A DNA stretch of 32,013 bases, taken from the NCBI GenBank assembly GCA_903893855.1, contig CAITNV010000042.1:1-32013 (forward strand), written 5' to 3'. Both the position numbers and the translations under genes were made by a program. Below are positions 1,056 through 16,325 of this stretch, one piece after another; the first letter of the stretch is position 1; each line of letters opens with the position of its first letter. Below the pieces are notes generated by a model. It was not told the DNA's origin, ran no database searches, and was given only the letters and a program-made list of their open reading frames with translations. This stretch comes from Candidatus Tayloriibacteriota bacterium. GTDB lineage: Bacteria; Patescibacteriota; Minisyncoccia; Phycocordibacterales; PALSA-1337.

Positions 1056-1553
1056 ATGATTCATGTTATTAAGACGATTGAGTCCATTCTCCCAACGCTT
1101 CTTACTCACGAGTCGGCGTGGAAGGGGATTTATGCAGATAGCGAAAAACCGCATTTGAAGAGGCTCTGGATGCAGTGGTATCAGTACCGTATCTGCCTCC
1201 ATCATTTCACGGAGTGTGGCGTGAATGAGGAATTCCCTCATCCACATCCATGGGCTATGGCAGTGCACATTCTTGAAGGTACATATTCGATGGGACTTGG
1301 TAGGGGGTCAAATCTCGATGTTCCACCGGCACTTACTTACCGTGAATACAAAGTGGGGGATTATTATGAAATGCTCGGTGCAGATGAATGGCACGCTATT
1401 CGTCCGCTCGGCAGTGAAGCGGTAACTATTATGGTTTCAGGTCCGCCGGTCTATCCTGAGAATAGGGCACGCTCGAATAAACCAACTAGGGAGCTTACCT
1501 CTCTTGAACGCTCGGAATTGTTTAAGCGGTTTCGGTCGCAGTATCATTTGTAA
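1056..1553 (+). CDS. hypothetical protein, possibly cupin-like (His-rich HPHPW...HILEG segment)
   Basis: 165-aa ORF. AAGGAA Shine-Dalgarno 7 nt upstream of the ATG. Candidate promoter TTGTAC-16-TATACT in the 973-1055 divergent intergenic. The His cluster FPHPHPWAMAVHILEGTY loosely resembles a cupin metal site. Confidence 0.4.
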   Translation: MIHVIKTIESILPTLLTHESAWKGIYADSEKPHLKRLWMQWYQYRICLHHFTECGVNEEFPHPHPWAMAVHILEGTYSMGLGRGSNLDVPPALTYREYKVGDYYEMLGADEWHAIRPLGSEAVTIMVSGPPVYPENRARSNKPTRELTSLERSELFKRFRSQYHL

Positions 1554-1643
1554 AAAAAGTTCTTTGCGATATGTCTTGAGTATTTGATTTAATCCCATTC
1601 TAATTTATTCTAGAGTGGGATTTTTTATGTATAATGTAAATGT

Positions 1644-2375
1644 ATGAAAATCATCCCAAAATTTACTATTTCAGATATACAGCTTGATGTCGGTGATCAC
1701 GAATTTAAAAAGGCTTTTTCTTTGTATGAAAAGGATGCCGTCCATACTATCAAAAGTGACTTTTCTGGATATCATGCGGTTGTTTCCGGAACTCAGGACT
1801 ATCGTGTGTATGTGAGTGCGAAATCATTTGATGTTGGAGATTGTAATTGTTATATCGGTCAAAAGGGCGAGCTCTGCAAACATATGTTGGCACTAGCAAT
1901 TGCCGTGGTATATACATATAGGCCAACTGATACAGAGATAGTAAAGCAGCCCCTTGATCAAGCTGTTTGTTCACATGAGCTTAGGGATATTACAAAAGAT
2001 GAAGTTGTCAGTATCAAAGCGGAGTTGAGTAAAGGCTTTAGTCTGATAAAGGGCTATAGTGGACCCTCTTCGAAATGGTTTCAATACCAAGACCGTCTCG
2101 CAAAAGGTTCTAGATTAATTTTATTGGCACTATCGAAACTCCCTGTATGTGAGAAATCTGCCAACAAGTGTATACTGATATTGAAAAGACTCGATGCGAA
2201 GTTACTCAAGGGTGGAATCGATGACTCCAACGGTACGATGGGAGACTTGATGATCAATATTGTCGAACTGTTAAATATGTTCGCAACTTCAGATGTAAAG
2301 CTCAAAAAATATATTAATAATCACTTGCCAAAAGGTGAAGTTTTCAATTGGGAAGCGGGGTTTAAAGCATCATAA
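1644..2375 (+). CDS. SWIM zinc-finger domain protein
   Basis: 243-aa ORF containing a textbook SWIM CxCxnCxH signature, DCNCYIGQKGELCKHMLALAIA. Confidence 0.55.
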   Translation: MKIIPKFTISDIQLDVGDHEFKKAFSLYEKDAVHTIKSDFSGYHAVVSGTQDYRVYVSAKSFDVGDCNCYIGQKGELCKHMLALAIAVVYTYRPTDTEIVKQPLDQAVCSHELRDITKDEVVSIKAELSKGFSLIKGYSGPSSKWFQYQDRLAKGSRLILLALSKLPVCEKSANKCILILKRLDAKLLKGGIDDSNGTMGDLMINIVELLNMFATSDVKLKKYINNHLPKGEVFNWEAGFKAS

Positions 2376-2385
2376 TTTCAAGTTT

Positions 2386-2455
2386 GTTTACATTGCTTGA
2401 CTCAATGTAAACAAAGGTGTATACTTTGCTTACATTAATAAAAAGATGTAAACAA
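2386..2455 (+). promoter_or_regulatory. sigma70-type promoter (TTGACT-17-TATACT) overlapped by an 11-bp perfect inverted repeat, plus a second partial site before the Fic start codon
   Basis: TGTTTACATTG (2386-2396) and CAATGTAAACA (2403-2413) flank the -35 TTGACT (2397-2402). The -10 TATACT is at 2420-2425, giving a 17-bp spacer. A second TTACAT...ATGTAAACA pair lies at 2430-2455, directly before ATG 2458. Confidence 0.55.
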
Positions 2456-2457
2456 AC

Positions 2458-3600
2458 ATGAAATCTATCAAAATTGGAGAACTTAAAGAGCAGAAAGAGG
2501 GCTTCAAAGCGTTTATTCCCGCACCTTTTCCTCCAAAAGGAAGTTTTGAGTTTGATTCGAAAATATTGAAAAAAGTCGATGAGGCAACACGATTGCTTGG
2601 CAAGCTTGATGGTATTACAAAACTTCTACCAGATGTGGATTTCTTTTTGAGTATGTATCTTCGAAAAGATGCTGCTTCATCAAGTCAAATCGAGGGTACG
2701 ATGGCAACAATGGTTGATGCTATTGAAGCCGAAGTGCAGTCGAATGCAAGTGTCCCTGAAGATGTCAATGATATACTGCACTATATTAAAGCACTTAATT
2801 ACGGAGCAAAGCGTGTCCAGCAGGATAATTTTCCATTGGCTCTTCGCTTTGTGCGCGAGCTTCATAAGCAACTTATGGATAATGCACGTTCGACACACTT
2901 CTCTGATCCGGGCGAATTTAGAAAATCACAGAATTGGATCGGTGGCACTCGGCCGGACAATGCGCGATTTGTTCCTCCTCCAGTGGAAGATATGCACAAA
3001 GCGCTTACTGATCTTGAGAGTTTCATGCATTCAAATGATGATATGCTCACTCTTGTAAAGGCCGCACTCATTCATGCCCAGTTCGAGACGATTCATCCAT
3101 TTTTGGACGGTAATGGTAGAACTGGCCGTATGCTCATAACCTTTTATTTGTGGAAGGAAGGTTATCTTGAAAAACCTGTACTGTTTCTATCTTCATATTT
3201 CAAGAAGTATCAAAAGGTCTATTACGAGCGACTTTTCGGCTATCATTTTGGAGACGTGTCTGAATGGGTCGATTTCTTCCTCGACGGTGTTATTGAAATT
3301 GCAAAGGAAGCAATAGATATTGTAGGTAAGATTACGGCTTTGCGCGATAAAGATATGCTCAAGATGCAGACGCTCGGAAAGCGCGCTGCTCTGAGCGCAG
3401 CTCTTGTGCTACCTAAGCTTTATGAGCAACCAATCGTTAATGTCGCGACGATCCAACGGTGGACTAATTTCTCAAGGGTTGGATCTCAATCAGTGATTAA
3501 TCGCTTTATAGATTTAGGTATTCTTCTTCCTAAAGATAAGGATAAGAAATATGGCCAGTCATACATATACAAGAAATATATAGATATTTTCTCCGAATAA
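2458..3600 (+). CDS. Fic family protein (class II: N-terminal inhibitory S-x-x-I-E-G motif, Fic core, C-terminal winged-helix-like tail)
   Basis: 380 aa. Canonical Fic motif HPFLDGNGRTGR. Upstream SSSQIEGT matches the [ST]xxIE[GN] autoinhibitory motif. Length and layout resemble COG3177-type Fic proteins. Confidence 0.9.
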   Translation: MKSIKIGELKEQKEGFKAFIPAPFPPKGSFEFDSKILKKVDEATRLLGKLDGITKLLPDVDFFLSMYLRKDAASSSQIEGTMATMVDAIEAEVQSNASVPEDVNDILHYIKALNYGAKRVQQDNFPLALRFVRELHKQLMDNARSTHFSDPGEFRKSQNWIGGTRPDNARFVPPPVEDMHKALTDLESFMHSNDDMLTLVKAALIHAQFETIHPFLDGNGRTGRMLITFYLWKEGYLEKPVLFLSSYFKKYQKVYYERLFGYHFGDVSEWVDFFLDGVIEIAKEAIDIVGKITALRDKDMLKMQTLGKRAALSAALVLPKLYEQPIVNVATIQRWTNFSRVGSQSVINRFIDLGILLPKDKDKKYGQSYIYKKYIDIFSE

Positions 3601-3651
3601 AAAACCGCTACGACGAGTCTTTTGAGACTGTCGAGCGGGTAAATTGCCGAA

Positions 3652-4098
3652 CTATTCAATCACAGTTCCACGCGCCTGTTCCTGTACTTCCAAGCGAAGG
3701 TTGTTGGGTTCTCGGATATCCCATAGACATCGATACAGGAGATTGCTCGCTTCTGCCAATCGATGTATCCTCATAACATTAAGACATAAGGCTTCCTGCG
3801 CGAAATGGTGAAAGTCGTGAAGACTGCTAAGGTCAAGGATTTCAGGTTTTTTAAACATGGCTTGCGTGATGCCGAGGATATCTACAAAAAATGAATTGTC
3901 GGTGATCCAGATTCGATTTGCGCAGCTTGTCGCCGATTCGGTCCAGAATTGTAAAAAACTGGTAACAGAATTCGCATCATCAAGGTTCAGTTCGTGCGAG
4001 ACGGGTTCTTTGAGCGGTTCGGTGATGAGGCCGTATTGCAGTATTCGGCCAAGTGCTACATTCCCAGCAATTACAAAGGTCGGCTTATTTTTTGTCAT
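3652..4098 (-). CDS. hypothetical protein
   Basis: 148-aa ORF directly downstream of, and co-oriented with, the HD-domain gene. No motif recognised. Confidence 0.45.
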   Translation of the reverse strand: MTKNKPTFVIAGNVALGRILQYGLITEPLKEPVSHELNLDDANSVTSFLQFWTESATSCANRIWITDNSFFVDILGITQAMFKKPEILDLSSLHDFHHFAQEALCLNVMRIHRLAEASNLLYRCLWDIREPNNLRLEVQEQARGTVIE

Positions 4099-4171
4099 AT
4101 TTCGCTTCTCTCTCTCTTTCTATTTTCAAGGTTTCATTTACGATACATCATTTTTAATCGATAGTCAATTC

Positions 4172-4729
4172 TTATCGAATTTTAAAAACCTTTGTCGCTT
4201 CGGTATACTCCGCCTCAAATAATTGATCAAGAATTGAACTCACACCTTTACACTGTTCTGCAATGAGTTTCGCACCAATTATATAGTCGCAATTACTTTC
4301 AAATGTCCAGCTTGGCTTTGGGTCTGTAACTACGAAGCGCACATTTGAGATTTGATCTGCGAGCTTGATTCGTTTGACGCTTGGACTTTCATTCGCTACT
4401 CGCTCTGCTTGTTTTGGTTTTCGTTCTGCATTAGTCAGGCTTTTAAATTCTATTGGATCAGTAAGTCCGTGAACTATTTCCATAACTTCAGTTCCGAATT
4501 TATCCTTAATATCCTCAAGAATGGTGGGTGTGTCCTCGACTGTGTCGTGTAGCCACGCTGCCGCTATTTCGGCATCACTTCCACCGGAAGCCCACACAAG
4601 ATCAGCCACTTCTTGTAAATGTTCGAATTGTCCGCGAACATCTCCCGATACCGTGGTTAGAGTAATGTGCTTATGGGCATCACGAACGAAGTGGCGTGCG
4701 ACTACAATGAGGTTTTGTGATTGGATCAT
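4172..4729 (-). CDS. small HD-domain phosphohydrolase, SpoT/Mesh1-like ((p)ppGpp hydrolase-type HD motif)
   Basis: 185 aa. AAWLHDTVEDT is the characteristic RelA/SpoT-type HD signature. An earlier His (HK-H) sits in the N-terminal region. Confidence 0.6.
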   Translation of the reverse strand: MIQSQNLIVVARHFVRDAHKHITLTTVSGDVRGQFEHLQEVADLVWASGGSDAEIAAAWLHDTVEDTPTILEDIKDKFGTEVMEIVHGLTDPIEFKSLTNAERKPKQAERVANESPSVKRIKLADQISNVRFVVTDPKPSWTFESNCDYIIGAKLIAEQCKGVSSILDQLFEAEYTEATKVFKIR

Positions 4730-4821
4730 AAATGATTTAATTTTGCACGTAAGTTGTTTGATGATAGTATATCAGCTGCACAGCTATATTTAATAGGTTT
4801 GAATAGCTTTACATTTTAGAT

Positions 4822-15038: not shown

Positions 15039-16325
15039 ATGCTAAAAAACACTATAATAAAGCAAAAAGGAGATCGGGACAGACTCATGTCTCTGCCATA
15101 TGTAGAGCGTACACAAGAGAAAAAAGCTCAGAAATGGATGTCTTCTGACTTGATAAAAGTCATTCTTGGGCCAAGACGAGCAGGAAAATCAGTCTTTGCT
15201 TTTATGTTACTTAAAGATCAGTCTTTCGCATATTTTAACTTTGACGATGAGTCACTCCCTGGCGAAGAAAAGATAGATCTTGACGAGCTTCTCTCAGAAT
15301 TGAAGCAGGTCTATGGTGATACTCAATACATTTTCTTTGATGAAATTCAAAATCTTCCGAACTGGGAACTATTTGTAAACCGCCTCCACCGTTCCGGATA
15401 CAATCTAGTCCTCACCGGTTCTAATGCCAGCCTTCTTTCAAAAGAATTAGCCACACACCTTACGGGAAGACATATTCCAATAGAGATATTACCGTTTAGC
15501 TTCCAAGAGTTTTTGAAAGCTAAAAAGTATGAATTTGATGCAGGTAAACTTGCTCTCCCTGAAGAAAAAGCAAAATTTTTTGGCCATATAACTCAGTACA
15601 TGACAAACGGTGGGTACCCTGAAGTTGTTACAAAGGACGTTGATCCTCGAGGATACCTAGACGTACTGTTCGATGCAGTGCTATTTAAAGATGTTATTAA
15701 AAGACACAAAGTTAAGTTTTCAAAACAAATAGATTATCTCGGATCATATCTGATAAACAATGTTTCAAATCAATACACCGCACGAAGACTTCGTGACGTT
15801 TTGCAATTTAAAAGTGATGTAACCGTAGCAAAGTATCTCGATTATTTAATAGAGGCATATGTACTGTTCTCACTCGATCGTCATTCAAGCAAAGCAAGTT
15901 CCAGAATACAGTCTGCTAAGAAGACATATGTTATAGACAATGGACTCGTTACAGCCAAAGCTATACAGCATTCGCCTAATTCGGGAAAACTTATGGAAAA
16001 TCTTGTATTTACTGAACTTGTCAAAAAAGGTAATGAACCAAATCGCGAACTCTTCTATTACAAAACTAGAAATGATCGAGAGATAGACTTTGTTGTAAAG
16101 AATGGGCATGAAGTAGTAGAGCTTATACAAGTAGCATATGACGTGAGCAATCTTGAGGTGGTAGAACGTGAAGTCAAAGCGCTCGTAGAGGCAGGACAAG
16201 AACTTCAGGTAAATAAACTAACGGTCCTTACCTGGAATGAGAAACGAGAAGTAAAAAAAGGTGATGTGACTATTATGTTTCGACCATTGTATGAATGGAT
16301 GCTCGAGGTTAATAATAAAAACTAA
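15039..16325 (+). CDS. AAA+ ATPase, COG1373 / DUF4143-type
   Basis: P-loop ILGPRRAGKSVF and Walker B IFFDEIQ. The C-terminal region resembles DUF4143. An alternative start exists at M17. Confidence 0.75.
   Translation: MLKNTIIKQKGDRDRLMSLPYVERTQEKKAQKWMSSDLIKVILGPRRAGKSVFAFMLLKDQSFAYFNFDDESLPGEEKIDLDELLSELKQVYGDTQYIFFDEIQNLPNWELFVNRLHRSGYNLVLTGSNASLLSKELATHLTGRHIPIEILPFSFQEFLKAKKYEFDAGKLALPEEKAKFFGHITQYMTNGGYPEVVTKDVDPRGYLDVLFDAVLFKDVIKRHKVKFSKQIDYLGSYLINNVSNQYTARRLRDVLQFKSDVTVAKYLDYLIEAYVLFSLDRHSSKASSRIQSAKKTYVIDNGLVTAKAIQHSPNSGKLMENLVFTELVKKGNEPNRELFYYKTRNDREIDFVVKNGHEVVELIQVAYDVSNLEVVEREVKALVEAGQELQVNKLTVLTWNEKREVKKGDVTIMFRPLYEWMLEVNNKN

Follow-up and report, generated by a model that had tools for sequence, protein, structure and literature searches.

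A conserved four-half-site block at the promoter of a SoFic-family fic gene suggests negative autoregulation

Introduction

One of the closest described systems is CccR of Yersinia pseudotuberculosis (YPK_0951, PDB 7XUX), which acts both as a Fic toxin and as a transcription factor and represses its own promoter via the inverted repeat AGATAATCAT-N26-ATGATAATCT near the -35 and -10 elements. This autorepression is dimer-dependent and was established by a lacZ fusion, EMSA, footprinting, and ITC (PMC9755527). SoFic/MloA of Shewanella oneidensis (SO_4266; PDB 3EQX, 3ZCN) is the founding member of the SoFic anti-phage family, a single-gene anti-phage system that is comparatively widespread. As a dimer, SoFic binds the 100 bp that precede its own start codon; binding was mapped to this fragment and not to a defined operator sequence, and the target of SoFic is EF-Tu (bioRxiv 10.64898/2026.07.09.737422). 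A third relative, EcSofic of E. coli H397, is toxic as the wild-type protein, and both dimerisation and the C-terminal domain are needed for this toxicity (PMC12249575).

Here, we describe the control region of a SoFic-family fic gene, namely the first of two fic genes in a 32,013-nt stretch of DNA (hereafter, the window), and compare it with orthologous loci, with more distant homologs, and with the systems above.

Results

Two dyads surround the promoter of the first fic gene

A first-pass annotation had assigned the first fic gene a textbook promoter and had proposed that it is likely autoregulated. The promoter is present as described, TTGACT, a 17-nt spacer, and TATACT forming the top sigma-70-type match (10/12) in 1500-4800. 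Around the -35 hexamer lies a perfect inverted repeat, TTTGTTTACATTG (2383-2395) / CAATGTAAACAAA (2403-2415), with arms complementary at 13/13 positions and a spacer of 7 nt (CTTGACT, 2396-2402). Its dyad axis, at 2399, falls inside TTGACT. The annotation had thus placed this palindrome correctly and had rightly centred it on the -35, but had given it 11-bp arms and an N6 spacer in place of 13 bp and 7 nt. A second pair, TTTGCTTACAT (2425-2435) / ATGTAAACAAA (2446-2456), is complementary at 10/11 positions.

Together, these repeats contain four 12-bp half-sites with the consensus GTTTG[T/C][A/T]TACAT, which form two dyads (Table 1): (i) dyad 1 (H1/H2, 2382-2416), which straddles the -35, and (ii) dyad 2 (H3/H4, 2424-2457), which spans from the -10 to the last base before the start codon. 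As a 12-mer, H4 reaches position 2457, immediately 5' of the ATG at 2458, so that the second pair does abut the start codon, as had been proposed. The half-site centres are 23 bp apart in dyad 1 and 22 bp apart in dyad 2, and the two dyad axes are 41.5 bp apart, which is about four helical turns and therefore puts both dyads on the same face of the helix. When the 82-nt intergenic region was shuffled, a perfect arm of at least 13 arose in 1 of 20,000 shuffles (~5e-5) and one of at least 11 in 18 of 20,000. Elsewhere in the whole window, just one perfect inverted repeat has arms of at least 11 (24572-24613), and a search of the window for further half-site copies, as a possible regulon, gave scattered two-mismatch matches only (21 versus 14 expected).

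Table 1. Positions of promoter elements, half-sites, and protein features in the window
Feature	Position	Strand	Remarks
Half-site H1	2382-2393	+	GTTTGTTTACAT; left arm of dyad 1, just 5' of the -35
-35 hexamer	2397-2402	+	TTGACT; in the 7-nt spacer of dyad 1; TTGAC 96-100% conserved in 77 loci
Half-site H2	2405-2416	-	ATGTAAACAAAG on the + strand, CTTTGTTTACAT on the - strand; right arm of dyad 1
-10 hexamer	2420-2425	+	TATACT; last two bases shared with H3; 92-100% conserved in 77 loci
Half-site H3	2424-2435	+	CTTTGCTTACAT; left arm of dyad 2; over the -10 end and the expected (inferred) transcription start
Half-site H4	2446-2457	-	ATGTAAACAAAC on the + strand, GTTTGTTTACAT on the - strand; right arm of dyad 2
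fic gene	2458-3600	+	SoFic-type class II Fic, 380 aa; Pfam Fic_N 6.7e-22, Fic 2.9e-21
Inhibitory-helix motif	2677-2697	+	SSSQIEG, residues 74-80; invariant in 58 aligned orthologs
Fic active-site motif	3094-3129	+	HPFLDGNGRTGR, residues 213-224; H213 to M225 invariant in 58 orthologs
Predicted C-terminal winged helix	3370-3570	+	Helices 308-321, 329-336, and 340-352 (recognition); wing 353-371

The block is conserved with the gene across phyla

In 77 orthologous loci, drawn from many phyla, the 77-nt block 2381-2457 gives a gap-free alignment, with the four half-sites and both promoter hexamers conserved in register. Absence of the palindrome from orthologous promoters, which the first-pass annotation had named as grounds for rejecting autoregulation, is thus clearly contradicted. 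Positions of H1 are 79-100% conserved, and H4 is the most variable of the four half-sites. Across the 77 loci, conservation sets in sharply at 2381, with a mean of 1.35 bits per position in the block versus 0.10 further upstream, and the variable positions within the block are exactly the spacers between half-sites and hexamers, which vary as much as the flanks. Four-fold degenerate codon sites in the same fic genes carry a mean of 0.24 bits and are close to saturated; constraint on the control region therefore exceeds that on neutral sites, and recent common descent is no explanation for the conservation of the block.

From 10 nt past the fic stop codon, information is again only 0.06-0.10 bits (78 loci). 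The flanking genes vary among loci, with 103 upstream and 101 downstream Pfam families, and the only recurrent neighbours are hsdS (12/76) and hsdR (about 13-15/73), about one-sixth of the orthologs lying between the two. Throughout the ortholog neighbourhoods compared, fic is the only gene that constantly accompanies the half-sites. The neighbouring SWIM protein was rejected as the half-site binder, because its gene is not a conserved neighbour. An AS1-like downstream antitoxin, as in EcSofic, was not found, the sequence 3' of the stop being unconserved in 78 loci and the downstream neighbours mutually unrelated. According to record titles, the hosts include Patescibacteria, Brocadia (a complete genome), Omnitrophota, Actinomycetota, Nitrospirota, Bacteroidota, several Pseudomonadota, and others, and the ortholog proteins are 69-96% identical to one another across phyla. 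This spread makes a host-specific regulator unlikely.

The clade of the window has the half-site form TGTTTACA and the majority of loci have TGTATACA, a difference that is within the tolerated degeneracy. A winged-helix specificity switch matching the two forms was considered and rejected, since position 7 takes A or T at all four sites; at H4, most loci have T. Among the orthologs, no case could be made for the protein and the operator co-varying. Outside the clade of the window, departures of an arm from the consensus are mirrored in the partner arm in just 4% of cases, and perfect palindromes are found for dyad 1 in 25/71 loci and for dyad 2 in 3/71. On these sequence comparisons, we read the dyads as probably acting through half-sites and not as a hairpin.

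Searches of plasmids with 1600-3700 (megablast) and of E. coli genomes with 2375-3600 (blastn) gave no match, tblastn against phages gave only MloA-like proteins of ~29% identity in Streptococcus prophages, and no ortholog of the fic gene was found in IMG/VR viral contigs.

The gene product resembles SoFic and has a predicted winged helix

The PADLOC SoFic model PDLC03963 matches the first Fic protein at 4.5e-109 (residues 15-379 versus profile positions 5-359 of 361), and its sequence matches in the PDB include SoFic and a Mycobacterium marinum FIC protein (PDB 7CB8). With an AlphaFold2 model as the query, Foldseek gave whole-chain TM scores of 0.74-0.77 to the SoFic structures 3EQX, 3ZCN, and 3ZEC. 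The NCBIfam equivalog NF046030 (SoFic) scored 136.2 bits, below its curated cut-off of 550, so that any functional analogy to S. oneidensis SoFic holds at the family level only. Judged by these matches, the protein belongs to the SoFic family but is not an equivalog of S. oneidensis SoFic.

The AlphaFold2 model (pTM 0.79; pLDDT mostly 83-94 in the C-terminal domain) confidently predicts a winged helix of three helices and a beta-wing at residues 308-371, in agreement with the winged-helix-like tail named by the first-pass annotation. The wing (KDKDKKYGQSY) and the recognition-helix residues R340, G342, Q344, and R349 are invariant or nearly so among the orthologs. At the other end of the chain, an alignment by offset matches the N-terminal helix 34-55 with the dimer helix of SoFic, and A43 to D59 are largely invariant (58 orthologs).

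The second Fic protein of the window (20515-21417) carries SNAIEN at residues 43-48 and the active-site motif HPFCDGNGRIGR. Both proteins can be assigned to class II on motif grounds, as had been claimed, with SSSQIEG and SNAIEN each fitting the inhibitory pattern [S/T]xxxE[G/N] in the same chain as the Fic core and N-terminal to it, and both have the active-site motif (HPFLDGNGRTGR and HPFCDGNGRIGR). In the first protein, HPFLDGNGRTGR agrees with the Fic/Fido AMP-transferase pattern HPFx[D/E]GN[G/K]RxxR. The further claim that they are latent and need an activating signal is only partly consistent with experiment, because E. coli Sofic proves toxic on expression even as the wild-type protein (PMC12249575). 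Such toxicity makes tight transcriptional control more relevant, not less. The window also holds PDC-S62, PDC-S01, PDC-S04, and AbiO/Nhi-like matches, a gene content that is consistent with a defence island.

Dyads also occur in homologs, in other modules, and on phage-like DNA

A 54%-identical homolog has the same half-sites, but its promoter is arranged differently. Of nine distant homologs on plasmids (29-42% identity), seven have their own, different inverted repeat, whose dyad lies 22-57 nt 5' of the ATG, with an outer span of 30-38 bp in six and 53 bp in one (35 bp in the window). Equally good repeats arose in at most 6% of shuffles.

A reciprocal scan used dyad 1 in the form most common among the orthologs, TTTGTATACAT-N11-ATGTATACAAA, and covered 80 metagenome loci that carry a perfect copy of it. 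In 42 of the 80, a fic ortholog begins 41-47 nt downstream. Another 18 have a promoter-like module followed by another or a decayed gene; at one such locus (L093), the module precedes a VbhA-like small ORF and a 202-aa class I Fic without the winged helix. The remaining 20, which represent 16 distinct contexts and are often on phage-like contigs, have the dyad without a promoter and without a fic gene. In these 16 contexts the dyad is exact, its N11 spacing included; 22/34 flanks retain the flanking G...C of the 12-mer (p = 8e-9), and three contexts have a third half-site at an offset of +42, as H3. Several of the promoter-less dyads adjoin phage genes, namely those for a Mu-F-like protein, RepO, a primase, an HNH endonuclease, a terminase, and a DnaD-like loader, and some are on IMG/VR viral contigs. 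It may therefore be that a protein of such specificity works in trans, or that it is not SoFic. A viral scan with a degenerate form of the window dyad gave two further kinds of site, both judged unrelated: two related contigs with HicA/HicB just downstream, where the site is probably the operator of these genes, and one site ~870 nt 5' of a phage HTH_36 replication gene.

Discussion

Autoregulation and its rivals

Negative autoregulation by the winged helix of the Fic protein itself is, in our judgement, the best explanation of these data and a likely one. What we observe are the sites, their geometry, their extreme conservation with the gene, the lack of any other conserved gene nearby, and the fold and family of the protein; the Fic protein would then be the binder, and its binding would repress transcription. 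The first-pass suggestion of autoregulation thus gains support from the conservation of the operator in 77 loci, from the predicted winged helix, from membership in the SoFic family, and from the precedents of CccR and SoFic. The inverted repeats of the plasmid homologs, the half-sites of the 54%-identical homolog, and the 42 reciprocal-scan loci with a fic ortholog point the same way. We propose that the protein would dimerise via its N-terminal helix, that one dimer would set its two winged helices on one dyad, and that dimers bound at dyad 1, which brackets the -35, and at dyad 2, which extends over the -10, the start point, and the leader as far as the ATG, would exclude RNA polymerase. 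A potentially toxic enzyme could thereby be kept at a low set point in any host that it reaches. The stretch 2381-3600 is best explained as a self-contained, horizontally mobile single-gene unit with a sigma-70 promoter, four half-sites, and a Fic AMPylase, and the subfamily appears to rely on the intramolecular inhibitory helix together with transcriptional control.

The half-sites might instead be recognised by a different regulator of the same specificity, for instance one encoded by a phage or another mobile element, with the fic promoter as one of its targets; the defence gene could then be silenced by such a phage factor, or the factor could serve the host as a signal of infection. The promoter-less contexts point this way, with their exact N11 dyads, conserved G...C flanks (22/34), nearby phage genes, and occurrence on viral contigs, as does the occurrence of the module before genes that lack a SoFic winged helix, such as that at L093. 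However, no candidate regulator gene recurs beside the promoter-less sites, searches of those loci and of IMG/VR gave no relative of the SoFic C-terminal domain, and hhalign of this domain against two nearby phage replication initiators gave a probability below 1%. Moreover, the module is conserved in hosts from many phyla with fic as its sole constant gene, and the experimental precedent in the family, from CccR and SoFic, is self-binding. We therefore regard a different regulator as unlikely.

Far less probable is that the repeats act as nucleic-acid structure, whether as a leader hairpin, as an attenuator or terminator of upstream read-through, or as a recombination site that mobilises the gene. 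While the arms are perfect in the window and the unit is clearly mobile with sharp boundaries, this explanation is largely refuted by the near absence of compensatory arm changes and by the imperfect dyads of most orthologs. Further, H1 and H2 precede the expected transcription start, the hairpin of the leader is weak (-5.2 kcal/mol, z = -0.9), no Rfam family reaches threshold, and the 3' end of the unit has no matching conserved repeat, as a cassette-type recombination site would need. The least credible account attributes the conservation of the block to a very recent horizontal spread, with the palindromes as incidental AT-rich sequence. The gene has clearly been transferred horizontally, given 69-96% protein identity across phyla, but four-fold sites at 0.24 bits against 1.35 in the block refute this account, the spacers within the block are as variable as the flanks, and so perfect a repeat is expected by chance at only ~5e-5.

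Phage copies of the operator and significance

Alongside autoregulation by the Fic protein, the pairing of operator and winged helix may do more than set the expression of its own gene, an idea prompted by the exact dyads on phage and other mobile DNA, which we advance with little confidence and which could take three forms: (i) incoming or replicating phage DNA may titrate SoFic off its own promoter and thus act as an infection sensor that raises the toxin, (ii) SoFic may bind and silence phage DNA, or (iii) the phage copies may be decoys that sequester the DNA-binding dimer. Any of these, if true, would tie sequence-specific DNA recognition to the triggering or evasion of Fic-based abortive infection, and the operator copies on phage contigs are a concrete lead on such sensing or evasion.

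Comparative genomics resolves an operator for this subfamily to the single base, with four half-sites in two dyads and a near-consensus promoter, in contrast to the 100-bp binding fragment defined for S. oneidensis SoFic. The control region exceeds synonymous sites in conservation and accompanies the gene from phylum to phylum. This suggests a portable design, in which a toxic enzyme brings along a universal promoter and negative feedback of its own and would so be safe in new hosts.

Comparison with known systems

The anticodon nuclease PrrC is a latent toxin embedded in the type Ic restriction-modification locus EcoprrI. The orthologs between hsdS and hsdR of type I restriction-modification systems (about one-sixth) recall this arrangement, whereas the fic copy of the window lies outside any such locus. 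As in type II toxin-antitoxin systems, a toxic enzyme would be held low by feedback at a palindromic operator overlapping its promoter, within a mobile unit found in defence islands; unlike in those systems, a single polypeptide combines toxin, inhibitory element, and DNA-binding domain, with no separate antitoxin gene. EcSofic belongs to the same defence family as the window Fic but is accompanied by the 47-residue downstream antitoxin AS1, whereas nothing is conserved past the stop in the orthologs studied here.

SoFic of S. oneidensis shares with the window Fic the order of dimerisation helix, inhibitory helix, Fic core, and winged helix, as well as a full-length sequence match and the predicted fold, although sequence identity is just 22-23% over the Foldseek-aligned structures. 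CccR is structurally more distant (Foldseek TM 0.53 versus 0.74-0.77 for SoFic) and, unlike SoFic, dimerises back-to-back; it is a T6SS-secreted effector, whereas nothing suggests secretion of the window Fic. Its operator, a single dyad of unrelated sequence with 10-bp arms and a 26-bp gap, also differs from the two dyads of 12-bp half-sites with an 11-bp gap described here. CccR is nevertheless alike in that it is a class II Fic whose inhibitory motif (SARIEG) is N-terminal and whose HTH domain is C-terminal, and the feature that marks its type of control, an inverted-repeat operator overlapping the gene's own -35 and -10, is found here as two dyads in 77 loci.

Four half-sites frame the promoter of the first Fic gene

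To the 82-nt intergenic region between the SWIM-domain gene and the first Fic gene belongs a perfect inverted repeat (dyad 1), complementary at 13 of 13 arm positions. The first-pass annotation had centred a palindrome on the -35 hexamer, and a perfect repeat is indeed present with the -35 inside its spacer, but this spacer (CTTGACT) is 7 nt rather than 6 nt long, and the arms extend to 13 bp. The promoter, described as textbook, proved to be the top sigma-70-type match across 1500-4800. Dyad 1 is far from a chance occurrence; of 20,000 shuffles of the intergenic region, one produced a perfect arm of at least 13, and elsewhere in the 32-kb window a single further perfect repeat, probably a terminator, has arms of at least 11. 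Together with a second repeat pair (dyad 2), the region comprises four 12-bp half-sites, H1 to H4, with successive centre-to-centre distances of 23, 19, and 22 bp; the dyad axes, at 2399 and 2440.5, are separated by 41.5 bp, or about four helical turns. The predicted leader (2426-2457) contains no Shine-Dalgarno-like sequence. The A-rich AAACAAAC before the ATG belongs to H4 and is kept across phyla.

Features of the window, and loci on other contigs discussed in the text
Feature	Position	Strand	Sequence or remark
SWIM protein gene	1644-2375		PDC-S62
H1	2382-2393	+	12-mer
Dyad 1, left arm	2383-2395		TTTGTTTACATTG
-35	2397-2402		TTGACT, within dyad 1 spacer
Dyad 1, right arm	2403-2415		CAATGTAAACAAA
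H2	2405-2416	-	12-mer
-10	2420-2425		TATACT, 17 nt after -35
H3	2424-2435	+	12-mer
Dyad 2, left arm	2425-2435		TTTGCTTACAT
Dyad 2, right arm	2446-2456		ATGTAAACAAA
H4	2446-2457	-	12-mer, ends one base before ATG
First Fic gene	2458-3600	+	SoFic-type
AAA_14 + DUF4143 ATPase	15039-16325		PDC-S01
Second Fic repeat, left arm	20404-18		AAAAATCAGTGAAAA
Second Fic repeat, right arm	20438-52		TTTTCACTGATATTT
Second Fic -35	20451-20456		TTGACA
Second Fic, third copy	20464-20471		GTGAAAAC, inside promoter spacer
Second Fic -10	20475-20480		TATAAT
Second Fic gene	20515-21417		PDC-S04 match
Schlafen-type helicase fused to S24 peptidase	22150-24174		AbiO/Nhi-like
ORF before probable terminator	24171-24458
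Probable terminator	24572-24613		perfect 18-bp inverted repeat, 6-nt loop
VbhA-like ORF and class I Fic, L093	219-945	-
Exact lone dyads, L087	84-116, 283-315
Exact lone dyad, L116	6741-6773
Exact lone dyad, L104	9058-9090
Exact lone dyad, L138	2149-2181
Exact lone dyad, L091	5065-5097
Exact lone dyad, L086	138-170
Exact lone dyad, L128	3062-3094
Exact lone dyad, L181	3278-3310

The gene product is a SoFic family member with a predicted winged helix

The 380-aa product comprises Pfam Fic_N and Fic domains, and both motifs claimed for it were located in the same chain, namely the inhibitory SSSQIEG (residues 74-80) and the active-site HPFLDGNGRTGR (residues 213-224). The PADLOC SoFic model matches along the whole protein (4.5e-109), and the nearest solved structures by sequence are the Mycobacterium marinum FIC protein (7CB8) and S. 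oneidensis SoFic (3EQX, 3ZCN, and newer entries). Since the NCBIfam SoFic equivalog score (136 bits) falls below its 550-bit cut-off, we regard the protein as a member of the SoFic family rather than an equivalog of the Shewanella enzyme. The winged-helix-like tail proposed earlier is borne out by an AlphaFold2 model (pTM 0.79; high confidence in the domain), which predicts a winged helix-turn-helix at residues 308-371, with helices at 308-321, 329-336, and 340-352 and a beta-wing. In foldseek, the whole chain gave TM scores of 0.74-0.77 to SoFic structures versus 0.53 to CccR (7XUX). The winged helix is conserved among orthologs.

Promoter, half-sites, and gene are conserved together across phyla

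Close relatives of the first Fic protein are very numerous, and sampling one genome per species yielded 80 loci (72-88% identity to the window protein), many on contigs of at least 100 kb. Judging by record titles, their hosts include Patescibacteria, Brocadia (a complete genome), Omnitrophota, Actinomycetota, Nitrospirota, Bacteroidota, Verrucomicrobiota, Planctomycetota, Pseudomonadota of several classes, and others. When anchored on the -35, 77 upstream regions aligned gap-free between window position 2381 and the start codon, with the palindrome, as sought in orthologous promoters, found in register. Mean information is 1.35 bits per position at 2381-2457 versus 0.10 across the 104 positions that precede this block. 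Conservation reaches 90-100% in TTGAC, TATACT, and all four half-site cores, and the short intervening spacers vary as much as the flanks do. Because four-fold degenerate sites of conserved codons in the same genes average only 0.24 bits, the conservation of the block reflects selection rather than recent shared ancestry. Past the stop codon, conservation is lost within 10 nt, which sets the conserved unit at exactly 2381-3600, made up of the promoter, the operators, and a single gene.

The half-site consensus is GTTTG[T/C][A/T]TACAT. The TGTTTACA form of the window half-sites is typical of its clade and, because H4 carries the T form in most loci, falls inside the degeneracy seen elsewhere. 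Among the Patescibacteria, members of the clade nearest to the window have a perfect DnaA-box-like TTATCCACA ∼6-8 nt upstream of H1 (L001, L003, L004, L005, L008, L010, and L012), the rest of the upstream sequence being unrelated between loci; the window itself has no such box.

Related Fic genes carry repeats of their own

Among nine plasmid-borne homologs (29-42% identity), seven have their own inverted repeat, with the dyad 22-57 nt upstream of the ATG, and several have extra half-sites. The repeat sequence differs lineage by lineage; the outer span is 30-38 bp in six and 53 bp in one (35 bp in the window), and shuffles equalled these repeats in 0-6% of trials. At 54% identity, L161 retains GTTTGTATACAT sites in another arrangement, its dyad lying 18 nt upstream of the ATG. 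One would expect such a pattern if an operator and the DNA-binding domain encoded by its own gene co-evolved.

The second Fic gene of the window (motifs SNAIEN and HPFCDGNGRIGR) has a consensus promoter with a different inverted repeat just upstream. Its C-terminus resembles an excisionase-type HTH. It may represent another self-regulated Fic, independent of the first and with an operator of a different kind. With its SWIM protein, ATPase, second Fic, and Schlafen-type helicase, the window resembles a defence island on a contig of Patescibacteria type.

Copies of the dyad occur with and without a promoter

A reciprocal scan of metagenome contigs with the commonest ortholog form of dyad 1, TTTGTATACAT-N11-ATGTATACAAA, returned 97 stretches, and 80 loci were fetched and sorted into three groups. 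The largest, with 42 loci (32 distinct spacers), has a fic ortholog beginning 41-47 nt downstream of the dyad in promoter orientation. Another 18 (14 distinct) have a promoter-like module before another or decayed gene, including a 312-aa Fic with HTH_17, an HTH_3-SocA/Panacea protein, an EcoRI-type methylase, a MerR-type protein, an AAA_14 ATPase, and remnants within a decayed restriction locus (L139). In a further example, L093, a SoFic-type promoter with H1, H2, and H3 precedes a 50-aa VbhA-like ORF (SSKMEG) and a 202-aa class I Fic (HPFREGNGR), which looks like promoter capture or replacement of a SoFic gene by another Fic module.

The remaining 20 loci (16 distinct spacers) hold a lone dyad with no -35, -10, or fic gene. 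The flanking G...C of the 12-mer is kept in 22 of 34 flanks (p = 8e-9), and three loci have a third half-site at +42, the same offset as H3. Many lie on phage-like DNA, adjoining a Mu-F-like protein, RepO, and primase, an HNH endonuclease, or a terminase large subunit and DnaD-like loader; one tRNA array has two copies, and three of the contigs are IMG/VR viral genomes. The tabulated exact copies come from contigs that are phage-like or viral. When the gap was allowed to vary, a scan of viral contigs found gaps of 1, 8, 10, 11 (four loci, of which three are independent), and 18 (two loci). Fic-linked and lone copies are both present in two samples.

The Fic protein is the best-supported candidate binder of the half-sites

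A hairpin reading of the arms was rejected. Where an arm departs from consensus outside the window clade, the partner arm shows the matching change in only 4% of cases. A possible hairpin in the leader has low stability (-5.2 kcal/mol, z = -0.9), and Rfam gave no match above threshold. The sites therefore act like protein half-sites under separate constraint. Perfect dyads occur in 25 of 71 loci for dyad 1 and in 3 of 71 for dyad 2. As the hosts span many phyla, a host-specific factor is an unlikely binder. In Pfam scans of flanking ORFs, the 76 upstream neighbours carried 103 families and the 73 downstream neighbours 101. The sole recurrent ones were a type I R-M specificity subunit upstream (12 loci) and a restriction subunit downstream (about 13-15 loci), and the window's SWIM protein does not belong to them. 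About one-sixth of orthologs lie between hsdS and hsdR of a type I R-M operon, a few bases from the hsdR start (L023, L025, L027, L039, L043, L052, L055, L061, L073, L074, L077, L080, and others), and a Synechocystis pSYSX homolog (39% identity) sits inside a type I R-M gene cluster, overlapping hsdS.

The only protein always encoded beside the half-sites is the Fic with its conserved winged helix. Autoregulation through this domain, thought likely in the first-pass annotation, is the best-supported explanation; the protein would bind the half-sites and repress its own promoter. Chiefly on account of the promoter-less lone dyads, we keep two less probable readings, namely that a different protein recognizes the half-sites and, more novel, that a sensor, silencer, or decoy function is involved. 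Near the lone dyads, we found no recurrent regulator gene; no relatives of the SoFic C-terminal domain turned up in these loci or in IMG/VR, and its profile showed no similarity to nearby phage replication initiators.

Comparison with characterized Fic proteins

Autoregulation by the Fic also agrees with what experiments have established for the family. CccR of Y. pseudotuberculosis, a class II Fic with a C-terminal HTH, represses its own promoter through a dimer bound to AGATAATCAT-N26-ATGATAATCT near the -35 and -10 (PMC9755527). SoFic was first presented as a standalone Fic defence protein (10.1101/2022.05.11.491447). Wild-type E. coli Sofic is toxic, with a small downstream antitoxin, AS1, reported (PMC12249575), whereas the orthologs here have no conserved AS1-like sequence downstream. 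S. oneidensis SoFic AMPylates EF-Tu; as a dimer, but not as a monomer, it binds the 100 bp directly preceding its own gene, with no operator defined in that 2026 preprint (10.64898/2026.07.09.737422). To these findings, our analysis adds a candidate base-resolution operator model for a SoFic-type Fic, promoter-less dyad copies observed on phage DNA, and, as the alignments indicate, a promoter, operators, and gene that form one portable unit conserved across phyla.
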